Source: Candidatus Woesearchaeota archaeon
GTDB lineage: Archaea; Nanobdellota; Nanobdellia; Pacearchaeales; GW2011-AR1
NCBI GenBank assembly: GCA_964479755.1
Contig: CAYZNI010000001.1
Span: forward strand, 10,171 to 74,170
DNA length: 64,000 bases
Reading direction: 5' to 3'
In this document: positions 284-18,514 of the stretch, one piece after another
How the letters are laid out: each line of letters starts with the position of its first letter
Numbering within the stretch: the stretch's first letter is position 1
Position numbers and translations under genes: made by a program
The notes under the pieces: generated by a model
What the model saw: the letters and a program-made list of their open reading frames with translations, nothing else
The model's database searches: none
What the model was told of the DNA's origin: nothing

Positions 284-2139
284 TTGAAATGAAAAGAAGG
301 CTGTTTATTTTTATTTTTATTTGTTTTGGATTTATGTATGCGCCGCTGCCCAAGGCTTCAGGAGTTTCTCAAGGAGCTTGTTTTCAGGAAGAGAATCTTA
401 ATGTATTAGCCTCCAGTGAACTGCCGAAAGAGACTCCTGTTATTTTTAGCTATGGAAATTTGCTAACTTCGTGGAAAGCAAAAGTGGAAAGTTCTGGAGT
501 TGTGCTGTTAAGCAATAATATTAATTCTATTGGGATTTTTCAGCAGGAAATTTCCGGGGTTAAACATTTCAGCTCGACGGAAAAATGCGAGTTCTATTCT
601 TTTCAAGTTAAAAGGAATCAGGGAGTTTTAAAGTATGATTTGCCGCTTGAACGCCAAGATAGAAATGCTGAAGGGAGAAAATTGTGCTATTATAAATTGA
701 GTGATGGTGCTGTCAGAGAAATTGCTTCTCTTGGTGGCGGGGCGGTTTCTCAAAATGATATTTGCCCGGAGCTTGTCAATGGCAGAGTGCAAATTGAAGG
801 AGAGGAATGCGCGGCAACTGCAGCGTGCAACGTCAATGTCCGCGCTGGCGAGAAAGAAACCCTTGCTCTTGGAGTTGATAAAGATTATTGCGGAAAAGAA
901 TTTGTATATGAGTTGAATAATGGAAACAAGATTTTGGAGACTGAGGTTAATGCGAAGGCTTCTGAATTTATTAGGGATTGCGAAAGCGGAGAGAGTGTAA
1001 GGGATAAGCTTGAAGTGAATGCAGTTTCTGGCGGAGGAACTAGTTCAGATGACGAAGAACTCAACAGCGGTGCGAGTTGCGGTTGTCGAAGAGATATAGT
1101 TCCACCCGAGAACAATCAGCCCGAATGCACTGTTCAAACAACAAGAGAATTTTTGAGCGGAAAGGCGGAAGGCAGCTCTCAATGTGAGTGCGGCCAGGTT
1201 TCAAATCCAAGCAGCGAAACTTGCCCTAGAGCCAGGTGTGCAAAGGGAGGAACCTGCGGATTTTTTTCTGGAAATTCTCAAAATGCGGCAAAGTGCGAGT
1301 GCCAACCGAATTGCCAGTCCGATTCATTAACCTGCATTGAAAGGGACCAGGGTAATCCATCCGACAGATATATCTGGTGCTGCCCAAAGTATGATGCGAG
1401 ATACTACTTGCCTCAAAAGTGCGGTGCTGCTGCGGGCACGAGGTGCTTAAATGACTGGATGCAAAATGAAGCAGACTTGATTAATCTGAGTGATTTGGGC
1501 ATAGTAAAATTACTTCCACCGAGCGGGCTCCCTCCTGGTTGCGATTGTTCAAATTCAGTTTTATTCATAATTGGAGGAGATATTTTAGAAAATGATGATG
1601 AAATTCTCAGACCATTTCTAAATTACGCGGTTATGAATTATATAAAAATGAGATCTGAAAATAATCGTGATTGCACATTTATCACGGGTGTTACAGGTTT
1701 TGATAATATGGATGATTTAGCCCAATCATTTATAGGAAAATTCAAGAAAGTTGCAGTTTTTACACACGGAGAGCCCGGACACACTGGAATAGACTTGGGA
1801 GGCAGTTTTGGAGCGCTTACTTGCAGTGGCGCAAGCAACACTTACATGCTTTCTTGTTTGGTTGGAGAGAGGCCATTTTTTGGCTTGGGAACTCCAAGAG
1901 TTGTGGAAAACTATTGTGTTCAAGCAAATCCAGGCTCAACGATACAAGTTAGCCAAACATTGGTTAGATTTGGTATTTCCCCAGATATTCCTTTAAATAA
2001 TCGTCCTGAAACTGAATTTAGTCCAATAATTTGCACGAAAGCAAACTGGGAGTGTTGGGAGTGCTTGCAGCAGAATCCTCCAAGGGCGAAGGTTGTTCCT
2101 TGTCAGGGAAACGCCTATCATAGTTTTGTGGGAAATTAG
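280..2139 (+). CDS. Secreted cysteine-rich protein, function unknown.
   Basis: 619-aa ORF with an N-terminal hydrophobic signal sequence (MKRRLFIFIFICFGFMYAPLP) and many Cys residues. It overlaps the upstream gene by atga, which suggests co-transcription. Confidence 0.5.
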   Translation: MIEMKRRLFIFIFICFGFMYAPLPKASGVSQGACFQEENLNVLASSELPKETPVIFSYGNLLTSWKAKVESSGVVLLSNNINSIGIFQQEISGVKHFSSTEKCEFYSFQVKRNQGVLKYDLPLERQDRNAEGRKLCYYKLSDGAVREIASLGGGAVSQNDICPELVNGRVQIEGEECAATAACNVNVRAGEKETLALGVDKDYCGKEFVYELNNGNKILETEVNAKASEFIRDCESGESVRDKLEVNAVSGGGTSSDDEELNSGASCGCRRDIVPPENNQPECTVQTTREFLSGKAEGSSQCECGQVSNPSSETCPRARCAKGGTCGFFSGNSQNAAKCECQPNCQSDSLTCIERDQGNPSDRYIWCCPKYDARYYLPQKCGAAAGTRCLNDWMQNEADLINLSDLGIVKLLPPSGLPPGCDCSNSVLFIIGGDILENDDEILRPFLNYAVMNYIKMRSENNRDCTFITGVTGFDNMDDLAQSFIGKFKKVAVFTHGEPGHTGIDLGGSFGALTCSGASNTYMLSCLVGERPFFGLGTPRVVENYCVQANPGSTIQVSQTLVRFGISPDIPLNNRPETEFSPIICTKANWECWECLQQNPPRAKVVPCQGNAYHSFVGN

Positions 2140-2558
2140 TATTGTATGTGATACCAATTATTTTTTGAGGTAGAGAAAAAAGAAGGATTGGGAGAGAGCC
2201 TGTGATTTCTAACAATAAAATCTGTTTGGTGTTTTTTGTTGTTTTCATTGGTTAATATGACTTTGTACAACCCATCCTGCAGGGCAGGAGCTTCAAAATA
2301 CTCGCATACAGATTTTCTATCGAAAAGTAAGCTGGTTTCGACATTATGCTGTAAGTTGATTTGATGGTTGTTATGGTCAAATAGCTCTAAACGACGTATG
2401 TTTCTTGAGTGGTACATTCTTACTTTGTTTTCAGATTGAATGATAAAAACACCAGTCTCATTGCTTTTATTTTGGGTGTGAACAGAGCAACCAGAACCAA
2501 GCGGGCTGAAAGCTAGAATTGCCGCAAGGGCTGATTTAATAATTCTTGTGCCTGCCAT
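2136..2558 (-). CDS. Small secreted protein, possibly a lipoprotein.
   Basis: 140-aa ORF. The N-terminal hydrophobic segment ends in LGSGC, which is lipobox-like. Confidence 0.35.
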   Translation of the reverse strand: MAGTRIIKSALAAILAFSPLGSGCSVHTQNKSNETGVFIIQSENKVRMYHSRNIRRLELFDHNNHQINLQHNVETSLLFDRKSVCEYFEAPALQDGLYKVILTNENNKKHQTDFIVRNHRLSPNPSFFSTSKNNWYHIQY

Positions 2559-2754
2559 AAAATTTGATTTTTTTTGAGTTTATAATCTTTTCGCGATTGG
2601 GAAATTGTCAGTTTTCTAATTAGTGAAAGAATTTTTAGGAAAAAGGACATGGAAAATTAGAGTTCTCTAAATATTAACCTGAAAATTTTTTGGCGTTAAA
2701 GTTGCACAATTAGAATTTTCAAGATGCTGTATCTAAATATGGAGATTTGATTGA

Positions 2755-2912
2755 TGAGCATTCAACTGCTAGAACTTGGAAGCAGTTGAATACATTGTGA
2801 AAATAATTTCACAAGCACGCAAATGCCTAAAATCTTGATGCATTTGCGTACATCAAGATAATAAATTATCTTGAGCATTCAACTGCTAGAACTTGGAAGC
2901 AGTTGAATACAT
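2755..2912. repeat. Perfect 41-bp direct repeat in two copies (2755..2795 and 2872..2912), with 76 bp between the copies.
   Basis: The sequence tgagcattcaactgctagaacttggaagcagttgaatacat occurs twice. Copy 2 encodes the last 9 codons plus the stop of the ATPase gene ending at 2886. Confidence 0.8.
2832..2859 (-). terminator. Hairpin with a 9-bp stem (atcttgatg/catcaagat) just downstream of the ATPase stop codon; possible transcription terminator.
   Basis: Inverted repeat with a 10-nt loop, followed on the minus strand by T-rich sequence. Confidence 0.3.
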
Positions 2913-5150
2913 CCAACTTTTCCAGCGCTCAAAAACAAGGTTTGTGTCGGGAGAGCCCGATTCTTCTCGGACTTGCTGGGAGATTTCGTGGAAGGCACCG
3001 TTGCAGAGAGAGTTGAACTGAGCCTCCAGCAAGATTGGCTTTTTTAACTTTTTTGCGGCGTCAACAATTTCTTGCTTAATTTTGGAGCGGAGCAGAATAT
3101 TGTCAAAGACAGCGTCCCAGTCGCCTGCCCAGCCCTTAACAGAGCCGGCGATTGCCTTGATGATTTCTGAATCGCCGTTGATTAATTCAGGAGTTGGTTC
3201 TAATTGGTCAGTCTCAACGTTGTATAGCATTAAATCTACAAAGCCTTTTTCTGCAAGAGGGTCCTGAGACCAGTGCTTACGAACTTCTGTGATTTTATGC
3301 ACTCTTTTTATAGAGCGAAGTCCGTCAGGAGTTTTAACCGGGTTTGCGATAATTAGCAAGTCGGTTGCTTTGAAGCTAGTCGCGGGAACTTTGAGGTCGT
3401 TGACGACTCTGTCGAAAACTCCATAGGGAGAATCGCCGTGAATAGTGCCTGCGACTACGTTGGCAAGAGCGCCGACGCGCATTGCCTCATAGAGAGCGCG
3501 AGTCTCATCGGAGCGGACTTCGCCGACAATTAATGCCGAGTCGCCCAGTCTTAAAGAGGTCCTAATTCCTTCAGACGCCTCTATTTCTGTTGAGCCAGAT
3601 GTTAAGGCGGAGCGCACTTTCATTCCGAGAATGTCATAGCCTATTTTTCTGAGAGCTTCGATTGGAAGCTCTTGCGTGTCCTCTATTACTATAGTTCTGA
3701 ACTTGGGCATGATTTCAAGCATTAAAGCTCCAAGAAGAGAAGTTTTTCCGGATGAACGTGTTCCGCTTACTAAGAGAGTTCTTGAGCCGTCTATTAAAAA
3801 AGATAACAGACCTGCGGCGAGAGGATTGAGCATTTTGTTTTCTATGAATAGTGGCAGAGTCCAGGGCTGATCGCGATGACGACGAAAAGCGTATGCAAGT
3901 CCCGAGGGGGAAAGAGGCTCAATAATGGCGGCAACTCTGGCCCGGGAGTGCTCGAAAGTCAAGTCAGTGTCTAAAACAGGATTTGCTTCGTCTAAGGGGC
4001 GACCTGATCTTAGTCGCAATTTTGCTGCCCAAGAGTTTGCGTCTTCGTAGCTTGGAATAATATTTGTGGAGCACTCGTCGTACTTTTCGTGGCGGATAAA
4101 AATTGTATTTCGATTTATCGGAGCATTGAGAACTATGTCCTGAATTTTCTCGTCCATCAACAAAATTTCAATTAAGCCAAATCCAATTGTATGGCGGACA
4201 AGGATTCTTGCAAGACTGTCAAGCTCGCGGTTTGTCAATTGAAAGTTCTTGCTTTTTGCGAGCTCAGAAGTCATATCGCGGGCAATGTTGAAAAAAACCT
4301 GGCGGGTTCTTTCAGGATCGGTGAATTCCTCTGCTTTAGGGCGATGCTCTTCTAAGACGTTTCTTGCAAGATTCAAGAGCATGTGATATTCTTCAGAGAG
4401 GGAGTATTCCGGAGGCATAACATGATAGAAATATTTTGAATCGTTTTCTCTTTTAAGAATTGTAACCAGGATTTTTTCGGAGTTTTTTTCAATTTCGTAC
4501 TGGTCTATTAACTCGGAATCTTGAGGAAGTTGGGCGGCAAGGCGAGTGAATGTGAAGTTTGGAAGAACCTCTGGGCGGAAGATTGCTTTATAGAGATCTC
4601 GCTTGCCAAAACTGAAATCGGATATTTCAGATTTCAGATTTTTAATTAGGGATGTGTTTTCCAAAAGAGAGAGAATTTTTTCCAGAAAACGCAGGTAGTT
4701 CATCTCTGATGAGGATTTTTGCCGTTCAGCATTGGACCTGAACTCCTTGACGCGTTTTTTTATTTCAGCGTAGCAAGAAATTGGATCTGATTTTAAAAGA
4801 TTAATCAGGTATTCAATGTCTTGGTAAACATTTGGAAGAGAGCCGAACATTGCCATTTTTCTCGGCGAGAGAATTTCTTCCTGTTTTGTGAGAAAGTTGC
4901 AAATTCTTGCAATTTCAGTCAGGAGGAGAACCTGCTGGGGAGGGTAGGAGTAATTTCGTTGCTGGACAAAAACGATTCTGGATATGTTTGGATTTTCGGC
5001 GAGAAGGTCAATAGTGCGAGACATTATTGAAGTTTCTTCCGCGATTGAAGGAACGAATGGAGCTCCGGCTGTGTTAATGTAAAGAATGTCCTCGCCCTGA
5101 CGCCTTTCGGTTTCGGTCGCAAACAGCTGCGCCTCCTTTTTGAATTGCAT
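2886..5150 (-). CDS. Type II/IV secretion-system family ATPase (archaeal FlaI/PilB/VirB11-like) with a long N-terminal extension.
   Basis: Walker A motif VSGTRSSGKTSLL and conserved downstream blocks (GEVRSDE, IHGDSP) typical of the GspE/FlaI family. At 754 aa it is longer than typical FlaI. Confidence 0.7.
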   Translation of the reverse strand: MQFKKEAQLFATETERRQGEDILYINTAGAPFVPSIAEETSIMSRTIDLLAENPNISRIVFVQQRNYSYPPQQVLLLTEIARICNFLTKQEEILSPRKMAMFGSLPNVYQDIEYLINLLKSDPISCYAEIKKRVKEFRSNAERQKSSSEMNYLRFLEKILSLLENTSLIKNLKSEISDFSFGKRDLYKAIFRPEVLPNFTFTRLAAQLPQDSELIDQYEIEKNSEKILVTILKRENDSKYFYHVMPPEYSLSEEYHMLLNLARNVLEEHRPKAEEFTDPERTRQVFFNIARDMTSELAKSKNFQLTNRELDSLARILVRHTIGFGLIEILLMDEKIQDIVLNAPINRNTIFIRHEKYDECSTNIIPSYEDANSWAAKLRLRSGRPLDEANPVLDTDLTFEHSRARVAAIIEPLSPSGLAYAFRRHRDQPWTLPLFIENKMLNPLAAGLLSFLIDGSRTLLVSGTRSSGKTSLLGALMLEIMPKFRTIVIEDTQELPIEALRKIGYDILGMKVRSALTSGSTEIEASEGIRTSLRLGDSALIVGEVRSDETRALYEAMRVGALANVVAGTIHGDSPYGVFDRVVNDLKVPATSFKATDLLIIANPVKTPDGLRSIKRVHKITEVRKHWSQDPLAEKGFVDLMLYNVETDQLEPTPELINGDSEIIKAIAGSVKGWAGDWDAVFDNILLRSKIKQEIVDAAKKLKKPILLEAQFNSLCNGAFHEISQQVREESGSPDTNLVFERWKSWMYSTASKF

Positions 5151-11454: not shown

Positions 11455-12087
11455 ATGGAAAACAGGGAACTGGCACAGATATTCTCGGCGGTGCTTTTAA
11501 TGTTTGTAGTTTCGGGCGCGGCTTTTGCAATTGCTGGAAAGGCTTTTTCGGTGTTGCAGGTGTTTGTGTTCTCATTTATTGTGGTTATTGCGCCAATTAT
11601 TGTTAAGAATGTGATTGCATTTGGCTTGGATGCAAGTGTTGAGCATAAAACTTGGAGTGTTTATAATTTTGGGTTCGGGAATTCGCAGCACTTTAAGGAA
11701 GAGCAGCCGTTTGGGGTTTATATTCCATTGATATTTTCGGTTTTGACTTTGGGCTTTTTTAAAGTCATGACATTTTTGACTTATGAGACCAAGGCGCTGA
11801 AATACAGAGCTGCAAAGAGGTTTGGGTTTTATTCTTACACTGAAATGACTGATTGGCATAATGGATTAATCGGAGCGGTAGGAATTGTGACATTGTGGCT
11901 GATTGCAGTTATAGGTTATCTTCCAGGGTGGGAATTTTTGGCGAAGATGGCTTCTTATTACGCGTTTTGGAATATGATACCTGTTTCAGACTTGGACGGA
12001 ACGCAAATATTTTTTGGAAGCAGAGTAATGTGGGCGATACTGGCAGTTATTACTTTAGTTTTTGTGTTTTATGCGCTGGTGCTATAA
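11455..12087 (+). CDS. Integral membrane protein, function unknown.
   Basis: 210-aa ORF with several hydrophobic helices. Confidence 0.4.
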   Translation: MENRELAQIFSAVLLMFVVSGAAFAIAGKAFSVLQVFVFSFIVVIAPIIVKNVIAFGLDASVEHKTWSVYNFGFGNSQHFKEEQPFGVYIPLIFSVLTLGFFKVMTFLTYETKALKYRAAKRFGFYSYTEMTDWHNGLIGAVGIVTLWLIAVIGYLPGWEFLAKMASYYAFWNMIPVSDLDGTQIFFGSRVMWAILAVITLVFVFYALVL

Positions 12088-12093
12088 GGCAAG

Positions 12094-12756
12094 ATGAAAA
12101 AAAACAGGAGATACCTGACTGTTGGGCAGTTGTACAAAAACTGGGCAGATTATTATGATAGTGACCAGAATCTTGCGATATTTTTAGAGGAAAGAGTAAC
12201 AAGAAAGTGGTTTAATTTAAAAAATAAAGAAATTTTAGACTTGGGTTGCGGCACTGGAAGACATACTTTAAAGTTAGCAAAGAAAAATAATGTTACGGCA
12301 GTTGACTTATCCAAGGAAATGCTGGATTTAGCAAGAAAGAAAGCGCAGACTGAAAAATTGAAAGTTGATTTTTATAAAATCGATTTTTCTAAGTTTAAAT
12401 CAAAAAAAAAATTCGACTTGATAATCTCAATGCTTGTTTTGGATCACATTGAAAATTTGAAAAAAGTTTTGGATAAAATATCTGCAATGAGCAAGGTTGG
12501 AACGGAATTGATTATTTCCAATGTTCCAGCTTATCAGATTTTCAAAAGGCGCGTTTTAGAGACAAGAAAAATTAATCAATATTATCACCCGCTTGAAGAG
12601 TATTTGAGGCTGTTAAGAGCTGCGGGATTTGAGTTGCAAGATTGCAGAGAAATGTTTTTTGAAGAGAAGGACGCGCGGACTAAGAAGTTTGATAAGTTCA
12701 AGTCACAGCTAAATGAGCCAATTGTAAATTTAATGAAATTCAAAAAAATAAAATGA
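12094..12756 (+). CDS. Class I SAM-dependent methyltransferase.
   Basis: Motif I: ILDLGCGTGRHTLKLA. Confidence 0.7.
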   Translation: MKKNRRYLTVGQLYKNWADYYDSDQNLAIFLEERVTRKWFNLKNKEILDLGCGTGRHTLKLAKKNNVTAVDLSKEMLDLARKKAQTEKLKVDFYKIDFSKFKSKKKFDLIISMLVLDHIENLKKVLDKISAMSKVGTELIISNVPAYQIFKRRVLETRKINQYYHPLEEYLRLLRAAGFELQDCREMFFEEKDARTKKFDKFKSQLNEPIVNLMKFKKIK

Positions 12757-13154
12757 AGATGCAGGAGGCAGCAGCAGGGATTTTTATCCGCGAGGTTGTG
12801 CAGCAAGGGAATAGAAGGCGAGAGGTTTTGCTAGTTCGAGAGCCGGAGAGCGGGCTGATGTATTTTCCAAGAGTTGAGATAGAGCATTTACGTGATGCTA
12901 ACAGCGCCTTGAAAGAAAAATTTGGACCTTTGTTTGACGGAAATGAGCCGGAATATTGGTACAATGTTTGCGGCTTTAGCCGCATAAGTCATAACCAAGT
13001 TTGCGTGCATTATTTTATCATAAGAAGTTCTAATTTGGCTGATGAGCCACTCCCTAGCTCGAAGTGGCTTTCCGAGCCATTGAGATTAAACGGGCAACTG
13101 ATGCCGATGGCCCGCAGAGTTGCAGAGGATTTGGCAAGGCAGAGATATTTGTGA
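12753..13154 (+). CDS. Hypothetical protein.
   Basis: 133-aa ORF. Its start overlaps the methyltransferase stop. Confidence 0.3.
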   Translation: MKMQEAAAGIFIREVVQQGNRRREVLLVREPESGLMYFPRVEIEHLRDANSALKEKFGPLFDGNEPEYWYNVCGFSRISHNQVCVHYFIIRSSNLADEPLPSSKWLSEPLRLNGQLMPMARRVAEDLARQRYL

Positions 13155-13458
13155 CAGAAAACCTAATCAAATTTGGTCAAAAAAAGATTTGTTAATTTGC
13201 TTTTTCATTGCGAGGTTTTTTAATAACGTTAGTTTGATTTATCTTTCTTTATTTGCTATTTCTGACAGCTCGGAGAGACTGATATTTTGTGTTGTTCTAT
13301 TTTTCTTTTTTTTGTCATAGAAAACCTTAATTATTAGCTAGATGAGTTCTTAATATAAAAAATAACACAAATACAACGCAAATTGTCCGCTTTTTTTATT
13401 GCTGCGGAAGTTTGCACTTGCGCGTAGAACGCGCCTGCGCCGTATTTAATCGTAAAAG

Positions 13459-15045
13459 ATGGATGAAATAAATTTGAAACCTAGGGAATATCAACAGAAA
13501 ATATTTGAAACTGCCAGAGGAGCGAATACACTTGTTGTTTTACCTACGGGGCTTGGGAAAACTTTGATAGCTTTAATGCTTGCTGTTGATAGAATTAAGA
13601 AGTTTCCAGGAACGAAAATAGTATTTTTGGCGCCGACGCGGCCTTTAGCAGATCAGCATTTTAAGAGTTTTGCGAGCAACTTGGGGGAATTGTTTGCCGA
13701 TATGCAACTTTTTACCGGAGAGGTTCCTGCAGAAAGAAGAAAGAAGATATTTCAGAGCGCGGAGATTATTTTTTCAACACCGCAGTGCATTGCAAATGAT
13801 TTAGGTTCTGGGCTTTATACACTGGAGGAAGTTTCGCTTTTAGTGATTGATGAAGCGCACAGATGCCTGAAGAATTACGACTATACGAAGGTTGTTGAGC
13901 ATTATAAGAGGCAGGCGCAGCATCAGAGAATTTTGGGATTGACGGCTTCGCCTGGGAGCGAGGAGAAAAACATCCGGGAGATTTGTGAGCACCTAGATGT
14001 GCGGGAAATTGAGCTGCGGACTAGAGATTCTGAAGACGTGAAAGTGTACTTGCAGGAGTTGGACTTTAAGAAGGTTGAAGTGCCTTTTCCGATTGAATTT
14101 CAGGAGATAAAGGTTTTGCTAAGAAGAATTTATGAATCTAAAGTTGAGGAGTTGAGAAAAAGGAATTTACTTTTTGGGCCGGCGAATAAAATTACACTGT
14201 TGCAATTGCAAAATAGACTTGCCAGACAGATTGGAAGCAAGAATTTTACCGCAATGATCGGAATGTCAACAACAGCGCAGGCAATTAAAATTTCGCACGC
14301 TCTTGAGCTTTTAGAGACGCAGACACTTTTTGGACTGAAAGAATATCTTGATGGACTTGTGAAGCAGGCAAATGAGAAAAAATCCAAGGGGGTCCAGAGA
14401 CTTGTTAAGGAAGGCGATTTTATTGCAGCACTGATTTCGTTGAATAGTCTATTGGCACAAAAGATTGAGCATCCAAAAGTGGAGGAGTGCGCTGTAATCG
14501 TGGAAAATCAGTTCAAAGATAATCCAAAATCAAAAGTGATTATTTTCACGCAGTTTAGGGATACTGCGGGCGTGATTGTGGAGAGATTGAAAAGAATAAA
14601 TGATGGTTTGATAAGTAAAGATACTAAAAAAATCGAGGCAATTTTTCCAATAATAAAGCCTTCTACGTTTTTTGGGCAGGCGAAGAAAAAAGAGACAGGG
14701 TATTCTCAGAAAGAGCAGAAGGCAGTATTGGCAAAGTTGAATGCTGGGGAGTTTAATGTTTTGGTTGCGACTTCTATTGGCGAGGAGGGGCTTGATATAT
14801 CCGAAGTTTCAACTGTTATTTTTTATGAGCCAATACCTTCAGCGATAAGAAAGATTCAGAGGACGGGAAGAACCGCGAGATTAGCGCCAGGGAAGTTGTT
14901 TATACTTATTACGAAGGATACTAGGGATGTGGCTTATCATTATGCAGCTATTGCGCGAGAGAAGAAAATGCATAGAACTATAGCGGAAGTTAAGGATGAC
15001 TTGAGAGAGAATGGGAAAAAGGATAAGAGGTTGGGGGACTTTTAG
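13459..15045 (+). CDS. hef: Hef/FANCM-type SF2 helicase; helicase domain only.
   Basis: Motif I LPTGLGKT, motif II VIDEAHR, motif III LTASPG, motif V TSIGEEGLDI and motif VI QRTGRTAR. Confidence 0.75.
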   Translation: MDEINLKPREYQQKIFETARGANTLVVLPTGLGKTLIALMLAVDRIKKFPGTKIVFLAPTRPLADQHFKSFASNLGELFADMQLFTGEVPAERRKKIFQSAEIIFSTPQCIANDLGSGLYTLEEVSLLVIDEAHRCLKNYDYTKVVEHYKRQAQHQRILGLTASPGSEEKNIREICEHLDVREIELRTRDSEDVKVYLQELDFKKVEVPFPIEFQEIKVLLRRIYESKVEELRKRNLLFGPANKITLLQLQNRLARQIGSKNFTAMIGMSTTAQAIKISHALELLETQTLFGLKEYLDGLVKQANEKKSKGVQRLVKEGDFIAALISLNSLLAQKIEHPKVEECAVIVENQFKDNPKSKVIIFTQFRDTAGVIVERLKRINDGLISKDTKKIEAIFPIIKPSTFFGQAKKKETGYSQKEQKAVLAKLNAGEFNVLVATSIGEEGLDISEVSTVIFYEPIPSAIRKIQRTGRTARLAPGKLFILITKDTRDVAYHYAAIAREKKMHRTIAEVKDDLRENGKKDKRLGDF

Positions 15046-15166
15046 CTATAGTGAGTTTTGAAAAATTTATCTTTCTGTAATTAATCACAAATAAAAAATT
15101 GACAAAAAAATATTTTTAATTATTATCTATGGTAAATTAATATTCTTAGATTAATTAGCAATTTTT

Positions 15167-15588
15167 TTGTTAAGGAGATTGAGATTAGAGTGGCATACTC
15201 AAAAGTCTAAGATTATTTATTTATCAAGAGGAATTGATTTTGTTGGTTTAAGGAATTTTTATCATTTTAAATTGCTGAGGAAAAGAAACGTAATTAAAAT
15301 GCTTAATAAAATTAAAAAATTTGAAAACAGAAAGTTTAATTATACAAAAATGATTGAAATATTTGAGGGCTGGAATGCTTGCGTAAAATGGGCAAACAGC
15401 TTAAAATTATGAAGAAAAGTTATAATGAAAATAAATTAACGAAAAATTACTTTGGATTAGCTAAAAGGATTGCTCCATTTAGAATAAAAGCATTAGGAAT
15501 AGAAAAGCTGAAGAAAGATTTTTTTAGCGCAGTTAGAGGAATTACCACATTTGGAGAAGAAGATAAATTGAATTGGCAACTTAAATGA
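15167..15588 (+). pseudogene. Remnant of a reverse-transcriptase/maturase gene (RT domain 7 plus the thumb/X region); frameshifted and truncated.
   Basis: KSKIIYLSRGIDFVGL resembles the RT motif KTKIxHxSxGFDFLGF, followed by a basic stretch (LLRKRNVIKMLNKIKKF) and a GW[N/A]xY-like block (EGWNACVKWANSL). It is split over two frames (15167..15412 and 15379..15588). Confidence 0.4.
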
Positions 15589-15614
15589 AGCCTCTTGTGG
15601 ATTTTAATTAATAC

Positions 15615-16274
15615 ATGGCGGGAAATTTTTTTAATATATTCTCCAAGAAAAGGGAAAAATCCGAGAGGATGAAGATTGAGGTTGACAATAGGGAGAGGAA
15701 TTCGCTGGTGCCTTCGCTGTTGATGAAAGAAGGCTTTGAAATTGAATGGAAGCAGCTGCCTGTTGCAGATTATCTAATTAACGGAGTGGCAATTGAGAGG
15801 AAAACTGTCGGGGACTTGAAGAGTTCAATTGTGGACAAGAGAATTATTTCGCAGCTACTTGAGTTAAAGCAATACTCAAAGAGTTTTTTATTTGTGGAAG
15901 GTATTACTGACGAAAATGTTTACTCTGGGGGAATTCACGAAAATGCTTTTCGAGGTTTTATTTTAAGTGTTGCTCTTGAGTTTAAAGTTCCAATTGTGTT
16001 TACTCATAATGAAGAAGATACGGCAAAATACTTAGCTGTTTTGGCGCGGAAGAAGGAGAAAGGGGATTTGGGATTGAGAGCTTCGAAGATTGGTTTAACA
16101 AAAGAAGAGCAAGTTCAGTTTATTCTGGAGGGCTTTCCAAACGTCGGGGTTGTTAAAGCTCGCAAGCTGATAAAAAAGTTTGGAAGCTTGTCAGGTGTGT
16201 TTAGCGCATCAGAGGAAGAGTTAAGGATGATATTGGGAAAAAGGGCCGAGGAATTTAGAGAGCTGTTGGAGTAA
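15615..16274 (+). CDS. ERCC4/XPF-type nuclease with a C-terminal HhH2 domain (Hef nuclease module).
   Basis: ERCC4 signature ERKTVGDLKSSIVDKRIISQL. Helix-hairpin-helix at GFPNVGVVKARKLIKKFGSLSGVF. The true start is likely the internal Met at 15669. Confidence 0.7.
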   Translation: MAGNFFNIFSKKREKSERMKIEVDNRERNSLVPSLLMKEGFEIEWKQLPVADYLINGVAIERKTVGDLKSSIVDKRIISQLLELKQYSKSFLFVEGITDENVYSGGIHENAFRGFILSVALEFKVPIVFTHNEEDTAKYLAVLARKKEKGDLGLRASKIGLTKEEQVQFILEGFPNVGVVKARKLIKKFGSLSGVFSASEEELRMILGKRAEEFRELLE

Positions 16275-16812
16275 TTTTTTCACTTATGAGCTCTTTTTTA
16301 ATTTCTTCTGCCAAATCTGTTTTTGGAACTGGAAATTTGAATCCACGGGTTGAAGCGTAAGTGAAAGTTGTCCAGATTCGCAAAGATGAATCTGGAGGAG
16401 AGGATTCGAAATAAAAATCAACTCTTTTAGCGCCGTTTTGCCATTCAGTTATTCTTGCTGCTATAGGATGCTTTTTCGGATCGAGCTTATATTCGTTAGA
16501 GAGAGTCTGATTGAAGTGCAGGTAGGGTTGAGAGCGGATGAATTGTTTTTCAGTTCTCCAACGGAAAATTGAAGGCTCGCGATATCTTAACTTGAACCAG
16601 GCCGGGGAGAGTGATTTTATGGCTTCGTCGAATTCATTGTCCGGGCGATATTGAAAGCAACTGTCCGGAAAATAGTAAATCCCCTGCAGGGTTTGTTTAA
16701 TATTTCCCTTGGATAAATGGCTTAACAAACCTGATAGTTCTTCGCTGATTCTTCTAAATGGGTGTTTTTCTTTGGCAGGTTGATTTGCAGTAATGGTGAA
16801 TTCATCAGCCAT
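16255..16812 (-). CDS. Hypothetical protein.
   Basis: 185-aa ORF with no recognisable motif. Confidence 0.35.
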   Translation of the reverse strand: MADEFTITANQPAKEKHPFRRISEELSGLLSHLSKGNIKQTLQGIYYFPDSCFQYRPDNEFDEAIKSLSPAWFKLRYREPSIFRWRTEKQFIRSQPYLHFNQTLSNEYKLDPKKHPIAARITEWQNGAKRVDFYFESSPPDSSLRIWTTFTYASTRGFKFPVPKTDLAEEIKKELISEKITPTAL

Positions 16813-16858
16813 GGAATTTCATTGAAAGCTGTTTTTTAAATTTATTTGTTTTGAAGAA

Positions 16859-18514
16859 TTATCTTCCGCCGCCTCCTCCGCCTCCGACGCCGCCTCCTCC
16901 CGCACCGCCGTGGCCTCCGCCAGCTCCACCAGCAGTTCCGGCTGAAACAGCGAAAGCTCCTGAAGAGGTGTTAATTCCGGTGTAAATTGCATACTGGGTG
17001 TCGCCAATGAACTTTTTTTCCTTTAGTTCTTTGAGGACTTTTTCGGAAACGCCCAAAGCTGTTGCAAAAACTAAGTACTTGCCCCACATTCTTATTGTTT
17101 CCTGATTGCCGGTCTTGATTGTGAATGATTGTGAGAGGTATTTGCGAAATGAGCGCCATTGCCGGTATTCATTGTAGAAATTTTCGCGATAGCGAATAGT
17201 AATTACAGAATGGCTGTTGAGGATGCTTATTATTATGTATGCCAAGAAAAAAAATATTATGAACGAAATACTTTTTATTAAGTAAAAGTTTAGAATTAGC
17301 AGGGCGAGGAATGTGAACTTAAGAATATACTGAGCATTCAAGTCCAGGTATTGTTTCCCGTTTTTCTTGACTTTTTTTTGAAGCTCTTTGACTTTAGTTC
17401 TTAGTTTATTTTTTGTGAAAATGTCATTTGTTGCGCCGTTTATGCCGAAGTATTCTCCTTTTGTTTGTTTTTCAGAAGCCTCGCCTTTAAGAAATATTAA
17501 TATGTCAAAAAATTGCTTTTCAATGTCGTCAAGAGCTTTTGGCTCGTTGAGTTTGATGAAGACTTTGTCTGCGTTAATGCCCAGGAATTTCTTTTTTTCT
17601 ATTTTAATATCAATTACTTTTCTGTGGTAGAAGTCAATCATAATTGAAGAGATGAAATTTTTATCAATAACTGAGAATGGCGGACTGAAGTAAGAAGCAA
17701 TTTCCCAAGCTTTTCGGTCTTGCGGGTAGACACTTAATTGATCAGGAATTTCTTGAGAGGAGTTTTCTTTTCCAAAGAAAATCCAGAGAATTGCGAAGAA
17801 CGCCCCTGGAAAGAGTGCGAGGATCAGGTAGAAATAATATTGAGAGCTGTCGAACTCGAAGTTTTGGAGCGGGATAATATTGAAGCTGGAAGAATCGCCC
17901 TCGAAAGGAATGTAAATGATGACGTTTTCTTTTGGATAAAAAGATTTTTTTGATACAATGTTTGCGTTGCTATTTATTACTAGATTGCTTCCGGATAGTT
18001 TTTTGTGCATATTTGAGGAATAGGCTACGAATTTTATGTAATTTTTTCCGTTGATTTGGAACAGGTTTTGGGGGTGAAGCTCAAATTGAGCTTCTATTGT
18101 GTACTCTTGGTTTGATTTAAAGCCGAGAGAGTTGCCGAAGGTGCAGCCGTATTCATTTGGCTCGGTGTATGGGATAATTCTTCTTGAATTGTAGACATTA
18201 GGAAATTCGTAGATTATGCCATTAAAGTTTTTTGTGTAAGGGGAGCCTGCCTGGCAGGAAACGTTTTTTATTTCTATGTAATTTTGCAAACCTTGCGCAG
18301 GAATTGCAATAACTTTGTCCGCGAAGTTTCTGTAAAGCGTGTGGTATTCATTGTCTGTATTGAAATAAAGTTTTTCTTTTATTGTAGTGTCTTGAATTGT
18401 AAGCTCGGCTTTGTAGAAGTTAAAGTCTGCGCGGGAAGTTTCAAAGTAAAACGCTATTCCGCCAAGGGCTAATAGAACTATTGTAATTATTATGGCGGCA
18501 GGAAGCTCTCTCAT
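16859..18514 (-). CDS. Membrane protein with a C-terminal polyglycine tail (DUF2207-like architecture).
   Basis: An N-terminal TM helix, central TM helices, and the C-terminus GGAGGGHGGAGGGGVGGGGGGGR encoded by a GC-rich (GGN)n tract. Confidence 0.5.
   Translation of the reverse strand: MRELPAAIIITIVLLALGGIAFYFETSRADFNFYKAELTIQDTTIKEKLYFNTDNEYHTLYRNFADKVIAIPAQGLQNYIEIKNVSCQAGSPYTKNFNGIIYEFPNVYNSRRIIPYTEPNEYGCTFGNSLGFKSNQEYTIEAQFELHPQNLFQINGKNYIKFVAYSSNMHKKLSGSNLVINSNANIVSKKSFYPKENVIIYIPFEGDSSSFNIIPLQNFEFDSSQYYFYLILALFPGAFFAILWIFFGKENSSQEIPDQLSVYPQDRKAWEIASYFSPPFSVIDKNFISSIMIDFYHRKVIDIKIEKKKFLGINADKVFIKLNEPKALDDIEKQFFDILIFLKGEASEKQTKGEYFGINGATNDIFTKNKLRTKVKELQKKVKKNGKQYLDLNAQYILKFTFLALLILNFYLIKSISFIIFFFLAYIIISILNSHSVITIRYRENFYNEYRQWRSFRKYLSQSFTIKTGNQETIRMWGKYLVFATALGVSEKVLKELKEKKFIGDTQYAIYTGINTSSGAFAVSAGTAGGAGGGHGGAGGGGVGGGGGGGR

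Follow-up and report, generated by a model that had tools for sequence, protein, structure and literature searches.

The locus analyzed here raises the question of whether a retroelement broke the gene for Hef, the helicase-associated endonuclease for fork-structured DNA, in two, or whether the retroelement arrived between genes that were already separate. We analyzed a 64,000-nucleotide stretch of an archaeal genome (the window), in which a helicase gene and a nuclease gene flank an AT-rich spacer that holds the remnant of a reverse transcriptase (RT) gene. The features of the locus are the following.

13459 to 15045, plus strand: Hef helicase subunit gene, 528 amino acids (aa), intact; its C-terminus, which reads ...KRLGDF before the stop codon, is native.
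15046 to 15151, no strand assigned: 5' part of the spacer, AT-rich (GC, 22 to 26%), without detectable homology.
15152 to 15442, plus strand: pseudogene remnant of an RT of the diversity-generating retroelement (DGR) type, consisting of the last ~97 codons (motif 7 and thumb, to the natural C-terminus).
15379 to 15588, plus strand: 69-aa ORF, unlikely to be a real gene, in another frame and partly overlapping the RT remnant at its 3' end.
15443 to 15614, no strand assigned: 3' part of the spacer, without detectable homology to the RT profile or to related loci, holding the TATA-like sequence TTAAAT.
15615 to 16274, plus strand: Hef nuclease subunit gene, 219 aa (ERCC4 and probable HhH2), intact, with a native N-terminus.

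We found that the helicase ORF carries the Pfam domains DEAD, ResIII, RNA_helicase_helical (PF21210, a helical bundle), and Helicase_C. The motifs PTGLGKT, DEAH, TAS, and QRTGRTAR can be read in its translation, and the features by which we judged a Hef helicase, SF2 motifs I, II, III, and VI and the helical insertion domain, were all present. It matches positions 15 to 515 of the 781-position NCBIfam Hef profile NF010337 with 530.6 bits. Its best solved relative is the Pyrococcus furiosus Hef helicase (1wp9; E = 3.5e-104), and its C-terminus resembles those of relatives that have no insert. Helicase genes of relatives carry inteins at three sites.

The nuclease ORF contains an ERCC4 domain (PF02732; E = 1.2e-22) and has a weak match to the HhH2 family PF12826 (HHH_2; 2.7e-4, 21.5 bits, below the cut-off of 27). 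The Hef HhH2 structure 1x2i matches the ORF at an E value of 7.9e-7, and HhH2 was called in most of its relatives. Solved relatives of this ORF are 2bgw, 1j22, and 1x2i. The catalytic residues D52, E61, R62, K63, and D67 (the D...ERK...D motif) are invariant across 30 nuclease relatives. The N-terminus is native and matches those of insert-free relatives. Against NF010337, the nuclease covers positions 562 to 775 of 781 with 176.6 bits.

Together, the two ORFs cover the Hef profile from end to end and sum to 747 aa. These results agree with the first-pass annotation, which had described Hef as two ORFs, a helicase with SF2 motifs ending at 15045 and an ERCC4-HhH2 nuclease, with a combined length of about 730 aa like that of a single-chain Hef. 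A single-polypeptide Hef feature is absent: the ORFs lie in different frames, 569 nucleotides (nt) apart, and each half scores below the NF010337 cut-off of 610 bits. Compared with the Hef of P. furiosus and other Euryarchaeota (NF010337), the window has the same domains in the same order (SF2 helicase with helical insertion, ERCC4, and a probable HhH2), and the best-matching structures of its ORFs include the solved Hef domains 1wp9, 1j22, and 1x2i. The window version differs in consisting of two genes and in lacking ~45 linker positions. The separate helicase and nuclease products presumably work as a non-covalent complex.

The nuclease also resembles the short archaeal XPF (Aeropyrum pernix XPF, 2bgw; NF040956), which is likewise a stand-alone ERCC4-HhH2 protein of ~220 aa, and 2bgw is its best solved match (E = 2.8e-23). 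However, the window nuclease scores higher on the Hef C-terminal profile than on that of short XPF (176.6 versus 113.7 bits), and a Hef-type helicase gene normally lies next to the gene of such a nuclease.

We then compared the layout of the two genes among relatives, counting 67 related loci that carry both. None of the 67 has a fused Hef, and the best 120 nuclease homologues are all stand-alone proteins of 200 to 235 aa (~220 aa). At 21 of the loci, the helicase stop and nuclease start overlap by 4 to 20 nt in different frames, with no insert. The gap is 9 to 36 nt in 4 of the 67, and at 42 it is 112 to 3,311 nt and holds unrelated cargo. This cargo includes toxin-antitoxin (VapBC) pairs, a nucleotidyltransferase, kinases, an AlkB-like oxygenase, and a small Cys/His-rich ORF. 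All the related loci that we examined, with nuclease identities as low as 53%, share the two-gene arrangement. The order of the surrounding genes generally varies from locus to locus. Since all 67 related loci are split, most of them without an RT, and 21 have overlapping genes with no insert, the comparison indicates that the split is older than the RT insert and that the insertion did not cause the fission.

Split genes are known in DPANN archaea, for example, those for reverse gyrase, tRNA synthetases, and Dph1/2 (PMC6349945). The window is a similar case, in which an archaeon with a reduced genome uses two neighboring genes for one multidomain protein of information processing or repair; in a limited literature search, Hef was not found among the described DPANN split genes.

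The spacer between the Hef genes (15046 to 15614) is 569 nt long, and its GC content is 22 to 28%, versus ~40% in the flanking genes. We found that it contains a highly significant RT match, of which the peptide KSKIIYLSRGIDFVGL is part. A phmmer search of 1.84 billion proteins with the remnant returned 129 matches at an E value of <1e-3, the best at 6e-25 with 63% identity, and these protein matches carry Pfam RVT_1. A family profile built from 116 relatives scores 120 bits on the remnant at profile positions 253 to 349 of 351. This bears out the first-pass annotation's fragment of RT domain 7 and thumb. That annotation had spread the fragment over two frames; instead, all the homology lies in one frame (15152 to 15442), and tblastn alignments continue through the TGA stop. 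In-frame stops occur at 15152 to 15154, 15410 to 15412, and 15437 to 15439, and ~250 N-terminal codons, including all the catalytic motifs, are missing. We concluded that the RT remnant is a pseudogene without function and that the intergenic gap in which it lies existed before it.

The rest of the spacer shows no trace of the RT. In the 5' part, the RT family profile reaches at most 1.1 bits in all three frames, and there was no significant DNA match among 93 related loci. Permissive tblastn had suggested a decayed RT reaching upstream to the helicase stop; given this profile score, and because the extension lies partly inside helicase coding sequence that is conserved in RT-free relatives, we rejected it. 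The 69-aa ORF at 15379 to 15588, which had been taken for the RT thumb/X region, was rejected as such: it has no RT-profile signal, no Pfam, NCBIfam, or PADLOC match, and no homologue in the compared loci except in the identical strain L001. We also considered whether a small ORF downstream of the RT is shared with locus L091, and the two are unrelated. Nothing else in the window matches the spacer, and the window contains no second RT copy.

The first-pass annotation had compared the fragment with a group II-type consensus (KTKIxHxSxGFDFLGF), which is not its best description. We found that the best PDB match of the remnant is 8ub7, and a tblastn search of phage genomes identified this chain as Bordetella phage BPP-1 brt. 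P0175, a full-length relative, gives an E value of 1.4e-45 against 8ub7, 8.4e-24 against a group II RT, and 1.7e-23 against a chain labelled retron-type RT. Full-length RT matches contain LGNLTSQ, a DGR-type motif 4 ([ILV]GxxxSQ), and both the catalytic YxDD and DGR-type motif 4 are present in P0175, P0253, and the RT of locus L008. The corresponding region is missing from the window, where profile positions 253 to 349 alone remain. Locus L091, which encodes the close RT relative P0253, has a variable repeat (VR) at 122 to 200 and a template repeat (TR) at 476 to 554, and 14 of their 15 mismatches fall at TR adenines. We found >7,800 homologues of 330 to 420 aa, and those with a named source belong to Pacearchaeota or Nanoarchaeota. 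On the evidence of the LGNLTSQ motif, the 8ub7 match, the adenine-specific TR/VR pair of L091, and these numerous homologues, the remnant is assigned by sequence to the DGR RT family, which is common in Pacearchaeota. DGRs are reported to be prevalent in Pacearchaeota, Woesearchaeota, and Nanoarchaeota and are a known feature of DPANN archaea (PMC6349945).

Although the remnant comes from the same RT family as the DGRs of Pacearchaeota, Woesearchaeota, and Nanoarchaeota and their prototype, BPP-1 bRT, the window lacks the catalytic motifs, TR, VR, and accessory gene, so that what it holds is the relic of a DGR-type RT and no longer a DGR. We rejected a live DGR because the 64 kb of the window contain no TR/VR repeat and no second RT copy. 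A group II intron was rejected as well. No group II intron RNA matched Rfam at the gathering threshold in the window, nor at an E value of ≤10 in 12000 to 18000. None of the spacer ORFs carried a Pfam RVT_1 or GIIM domain. On TIGR04416 (group II RT/maturase; cut-off, 300 bits), the remnant scores 16.6 bits (E = 0.0033) and its full-length relatives 140 to 157 bits. Group II RT/maturases are a related RT clade with a similar pattern of motif 7 and thumb, but the full-length relatives of the remnant, at ~350 aa, are devoid of DNA-binding and endonuclease domains and score much better against DGR bRT. A retron or defense RT (UG, DRT) was also rejected: PADLOC matches were marginal (E, ~0.002), and the relatives are far below the NCBIfam Drt and retron cut-offs. 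No msr/msd RNA family was found with Rfam in the window at the gathering threshold or in 12000 to 18000 at an E value of ≤10.

We consider it highly probable that Hef has long been a two-gene system in this lineage and that the DGR RT arrived after the split and then decayed by ordinary genome decay. In the host lineage (Pacearchaeota-like, DPANN), Hef would long have been encoded by adjacent helicase and ERCC4-HhH2 nuclease genes, which ancestrally were probably joined by a tight overlap of stop and start codons. The junction would later have gained foreign DNA, including an RT gene of the DGR family that is abundant in these archaea. This gene would then have decayed, losing ~250 N-terminal codons, acquiring three stops, and drifting to a GC of ~25% over the ~97 codons left. 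With no template or variable repeat left, the remnant would do nothing. The intact nuclease gene is probably transcribed from a TATA-like box in the spacer or by read-through. A possible promoter is TTAAAT at 15581 to 15586, 29 to 34 nt upstream of the nuclease ATG. TATA-like hexamers begin at -29/-28 from the ATG in ~13 of the 42 ORFs of the window; that of the nuclease begins at -34. For P0004, the closest relative of the nuclease, the contig extends just 191 nt beyond the 5' end of the gene, and this stretch contains the end of an unrelated ORF.

Among ~70 lineages, one other (L008/L009) has an RT upstream of its nuclease gene; it lies directly upstream, and the nuclease is 76% identical to that of the window. 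In L008, the RT reading frame is uninterrupted over 294 codons and retains YVDD; its first ~69 codons are missing, and only 2 nt separate its end from the ATG of the nuclease. The L008 contig is short and shows no helicase, so the RT there may lie outside a helicase-nuclease gap. A rough neighbor-joining tree intersperses the window and L008 with overlapping-gene lineages, a pattern that requires two insertions or precise losses. We asked whether the pairing is more than an accident, either because the RT was recruited to act together with the ERCC4 nuclease or because the junction is a preferred landing site for DGR-bearing or other mobile cargo, with the window holding a decayed copy of such a system. 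If insertion were purely random, its recurrence next to the nuclease gene in a second lineage would not be an obvious expectation, and the accessory cargo at 42 of 67 loci and the inteins in helicase genes point the same way. We nevertheless regard this reading as quite unlikely. The RT is present in just 2 of ~70 lineages; that of the window is clearly dead, and that of L008 is truncated at its start. The distance from RT to ATG differs, being 2 nt in L008 and 172 nt in the window, and the two junctions have no DNA in common. At 62% identity, the L008 RT resembles the remnant no more than unrelated members of the family do (60 to 63%). Since gene order varies around Hef loci in general, the gap may not be unusual. 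A broader proposal is that the Pacearchaeota Hef junction is a landing pad for selfish or accessory DNA and that the recurrent, unannotated Cys/His-rich protein of 80 to 98 aa is a third, translationally coupled Hef subunit; we consider this unlikely. If the landing pad were real, targeted insertion or functional pairing, rather than chance, would explain why two lineages have an RT next to the nuclease.

Very improbable is the reading closest to the first-pass annotation, that a group II intron or other retroelement broke a single-chain Hef in two and left the RT remnant as a scar. It would account for a genuine RT remnant exactly between the Hef halves and for two ORFs that jointly span the whole Hef profile. 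But the locus has no group II intron RNA and an RT of the DGR type rather than the intron type, and the helicase C-terminus and nuclease N-terminus are native, as in insert-free relatives. The fused-versus-split comparison that had been suggested also goes against fission by insertion, with all 67 loci split, 21 of them overlapping and 42 with unrelated inserts. What stands of the earlier claim is the retroelement RT remnant between separate helicase and nuclease genes; the group II intron origin and the fission by insertion do not stand. The first-pass annotation had named two observations that would count against its reading, a spacer unlike RTs and relatives with the same two genes around an unrelated spacer. 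The spacer does resemble RTs, and the relatives do share the two-gene layout with unrelated spacers.

It is hardly credible that the 81-codon ORF at 15167 to 15412 is a living small gene for a stand-alone RT thumb-like protein: its frame is open, it strongly resembles the RT family, and many of its database matches are short proteins, but its start codon would be TTG, the homology runs beyond it on both sides across stop codons, its GC has decayed to ~25%, and the short matches come mostly from very short contigs, such as the 982-nt contig of the top RT match, P0121.

We therefore return to a Hef that was split before the RT arrived. The pattern of a divided gene whose halves flank a retroelement scar is striking, yet it is no proof of cause, and the relatives show that the split came first. 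The locus is one further case of DGR decay in DPANN genomes and implies no new mechanism; its relevance is chiefly to annotation and evolution. It documents that a large group of Pacearchaeota encodes Hef in two genes, which may be of use in studies of archaeal fork repair and of Hef/FANCM as an evolutionary marker.

In the window, Hef is encoded by two open reading frames (ORFs) in different frames, with 569 nt between them and a combined product length of 747 aa.

13459-15045, plus strand: Hef helicase ORF, 528 aa (Pfam, NCBIfam, and a solved relative)
15615-16274, plus strand: Hef nuclease ORF, 219 aa (Pfam, NCBIfam, and solved relatives)

We found that the helicase ORF carries the Pfam domains DEAD, ResIII, RNA-helicase helical bundle, and Helicase_C and covers positions 15-515 of NF010337, the NCBIfam Hef model of 781 positions (530.6 bits). 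Its best solved relative is the Pyrococcus furiosus Hef helicase domain (1wp9; E=3.5e-104). The nuclease ORF matches ERCC4, with a weak HhH2 match, and covers NF010337 positions 562-775 (176.6 bits); its best solved relatives are archaeal XPF and the Hef nuclease and HhH2 domains (2bgw, 1j22, and 1x2i). Thus, the first-pass annotation was correct in placing Hef in two pieces. Both genes are intact and conserved, catalytic ERCC4 residues included, and their products probably act together as a split Hef.

The spacer has a GC content of 22 to 28%, versus approximately 40% in the flanking genes, and neither of its ORFs matched Pfam. We ran a full HMMER scan of translated 15155-15409 against 1.84 billion representative proteins and obtained 129 hits at E<1e-3 (top hit, E=6e-25, 63% identity). 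The matching proteins are RVT_1 reverse transcriptases (RTs), and in full-length ones (346 to 380 aa) the aligned part is the C terminus, at about residues 250 to 340. A family profile built from 116 full-length relatives (351 positions) aligned to 15152-15442 with 120 bits, reading through stops at 15410-12 and 15437-39. The match was limited to profile positions 253-349 of 351; therefore, the remnant is the last ~97 codons (motif 7 and thumb) of a gene of ~350 codons, and the catalytic motifs are all deleted. By these tests, which are more sensitive than Pfam, the RT remnant is genuine, and it has no plausible function. The profile gave no signal in any frame of 15046-15154 or 15437-15614. 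RT sequence had also been proposed in a second frame, but the ORF there (15379-15588) lacks RT signal, and we rejected it; among the fetched loci, it has no homologue except in an identical strain.

The RT had been labeled a possible group II intron product, and this label did not hold. With Rfam, neither group II intron nor retron RNAs were detected in the window at the gathering threshold or in 12000-18000 at E<=10. The group II RT/maturase model, whose cut-off is 300 bits, scored 16.6 bits on the remnant and 140 to 157 bits on full-length relatives. The remnant's top solved match is 8ub7_A, which we identified by tblastn of the chain against phage genomes as brt of Bordetella phage BPP-1, the prototype RT of diversity-generating retroelements (DGRs). 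A full-length relative (P0175) matched 8ub7_A over nearly its whole length with an E value of 1.4e-45, versus 8.4e-24 for a group II intron RT. LGNLTSQ, a typical DGR RT motif, also occurs in the RT relatives. With >7,800 hits, the family is very large, and its named members come from Pacearchaeota or Nanoarchaeota; DGRs are reported to be prevalent in archaea of this type (PMC6349945). All of these data, together with the L091 repeat pair described below, point to the DGR family. In the window, we found neither a template/variable repeat (TR/VR)-like repeat nor a second RT copy, and the element survives only as a nonworking relic.

The first-pass annotation further suggested that the insertion had split Hef. 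The best 120 nuclease homologues are all stand-alone proteins of 200 to 235 aa (59 to 78% identity), and those with names belong to Pacearchaeota or Nanoarchaeota. We fetched 93 loci, 67 of which contain both Hef genes, and none of the 67 has a fused gene. The helicase stop overlaps the nuclease start by 4 to 20 nt, in a different frame, in 21 loci; the genes are 9 to 36 nt apart in 4 and 112 to 3311 nt apart in 42, counts that overstate independence because several loci are same-strain duplicates. The window's helicase C terminus and nuclease N terminus agree with those of insert-free relatives. These observations show that the insertion did not split Hef; an old fission is the simplest history and fits the known propensity of DPANN genomes for gene splitting (PMC6349945). 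The fission would have left an intergenic junction free to accept insertions, one of which would have delivered a DGR RT, now decayed.

There is a modest chance that the helicase-nuclease site attracts such cargo. An RT is the immediate upstream neighbor of the nuclease gene in the window and, among the fetched loci, only in L008 and L009, which are one lineage (nuclease 76% identical to the window's) on a contig that, in L008, is too short to show the helicase. The RT of L008 has an open frame of 294 codons that retains YVDD. Its family match sets in sharply at position 70, and nothing homologous precedes it in any frame; its 3' end is 2 nt from the nuclease ATG, versus 172 nt for the window remnant. 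However, the two RT-to-nuclease intervals show no similarity, and the remnant is no closer to the L008 RT (62% identity) than to unrelated family members (60 to 63%). In a rough neighbor-joining tree of the nuclease, the window pairs with P0004, whose contig is short and whose upstream ORF is unrelated, and L008 pairs with two overlapping-gene lineages. The history may have been one insertion followed by losses or two separate insertions.

L091 carries a DGR that is intact and has a TR/VR pair with adenine-specific differences, beside the closest full-length RT relative. This RT (P0253) is 68% identical to that of L008; upstream of it lies a pair of 79-nt repeats, one at 122-200 (3' end of the gene upstream) and the other at 476-554 (just before the RT start). 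The copies differ at 15 positions, 14 of them adenines of the RT-proximal copy, and this adenine bias is the DGR signature. In L091 and L092, the RT lies ~550 nt from a contig end. A tRNA-like sequence (1597-1703) immediately follows the RT in L092.

Other gaps hold a Cys/His-rich ORF, small membrane proteins, pairs of a VapB antitoxin and a PIN toxin, PIN_2, nucleotidyltransferases, two APH-type kinases with a GNAT, and an AlkB-like 2OG-Fe(II) oxygenase. Accessory-gene gaps occur in L031, L036, L018, L015, L044, L050, L054, L048, and L060. The Cys/His-rich ORF (80 to 98 aa; CPPHRxPH...DEPCHxH...HHxxFCxxLxCPxY) recurs in 12 loci as 8 distinct sequences, matches no Pfam family, and is absent from the window; its product could be a third partner of split Hef. 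Besides L003, it occurs in L004, L013, L030, L033, L020, L086, L062, L072, L065, L050, and L015. Relatives also have in-frame inteins within their helicase genes, with three distinct insertion sites.

L003 3758-3997: Cys/His-rich ORF, start overlapping the helicase stop
L027 2204-3538: helicase intein
L022 928-2433: helicase intein
L062 about 1948-3417: helicase intein

The inserts are stop-free with typical Cys...HN/(Ser or Cys) junctions, for example, IQR/CLP...VHN/SGRTAR in motif VI and STPQ/CVDG...SHN/CIANDL (slashes mark junctions); the window helicase has none. We found no Hef helicase within 2.5 to 4 kb upstream of the nuclease gene in at least two loci, L021 and L089, nor anywhere in the 8.6-kb L089 locus; thus, the two genes are unlinked in some relatives.

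Upstream of the nuclease ATG, the TATA-like TTAAAT at 15581-15586 may serve as a predicted promoter. Among 42 window ORFs of 150 aa or more, ~13 have TATA-like hexamers (TTTAAA or TTTATA) starting at -29/-28 from the ATG, a spacing that suggests that most transcripts of this genome are leaderless; TTAAAT lies 5 to 6 nt farther away. Two further features were recorded.

16255-18514, minus strand: two unannotated genes between the nuclease and apparent LigT-like and M16 peptidase genes
2755-2795 and 2872-2912: perfect 41-nt direct repeat, spacing 117 nt, each copy with an internal palindrome (TTCAACTGC...GCAGTTGAA)

The unannotated genes encode 185 aa (no Pfam hit) and 551 aa (Gly-rich C terminus); the LigT-like and M16 genes were called by ORF length only. 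LigT directly follows the nuclease gene in L003 and similar relatives; thus, the downstream flank is another variable spot.

The first-pass observation was largely confirmed, and its causal story and intron label were not. We concluded that the finding is an ordinary retroelement pseudogene in the intergenic space between the halves of a gene split long ago, of some comparative interest for the two-gene Hef across Pacearchaeota and its highly variable junction.
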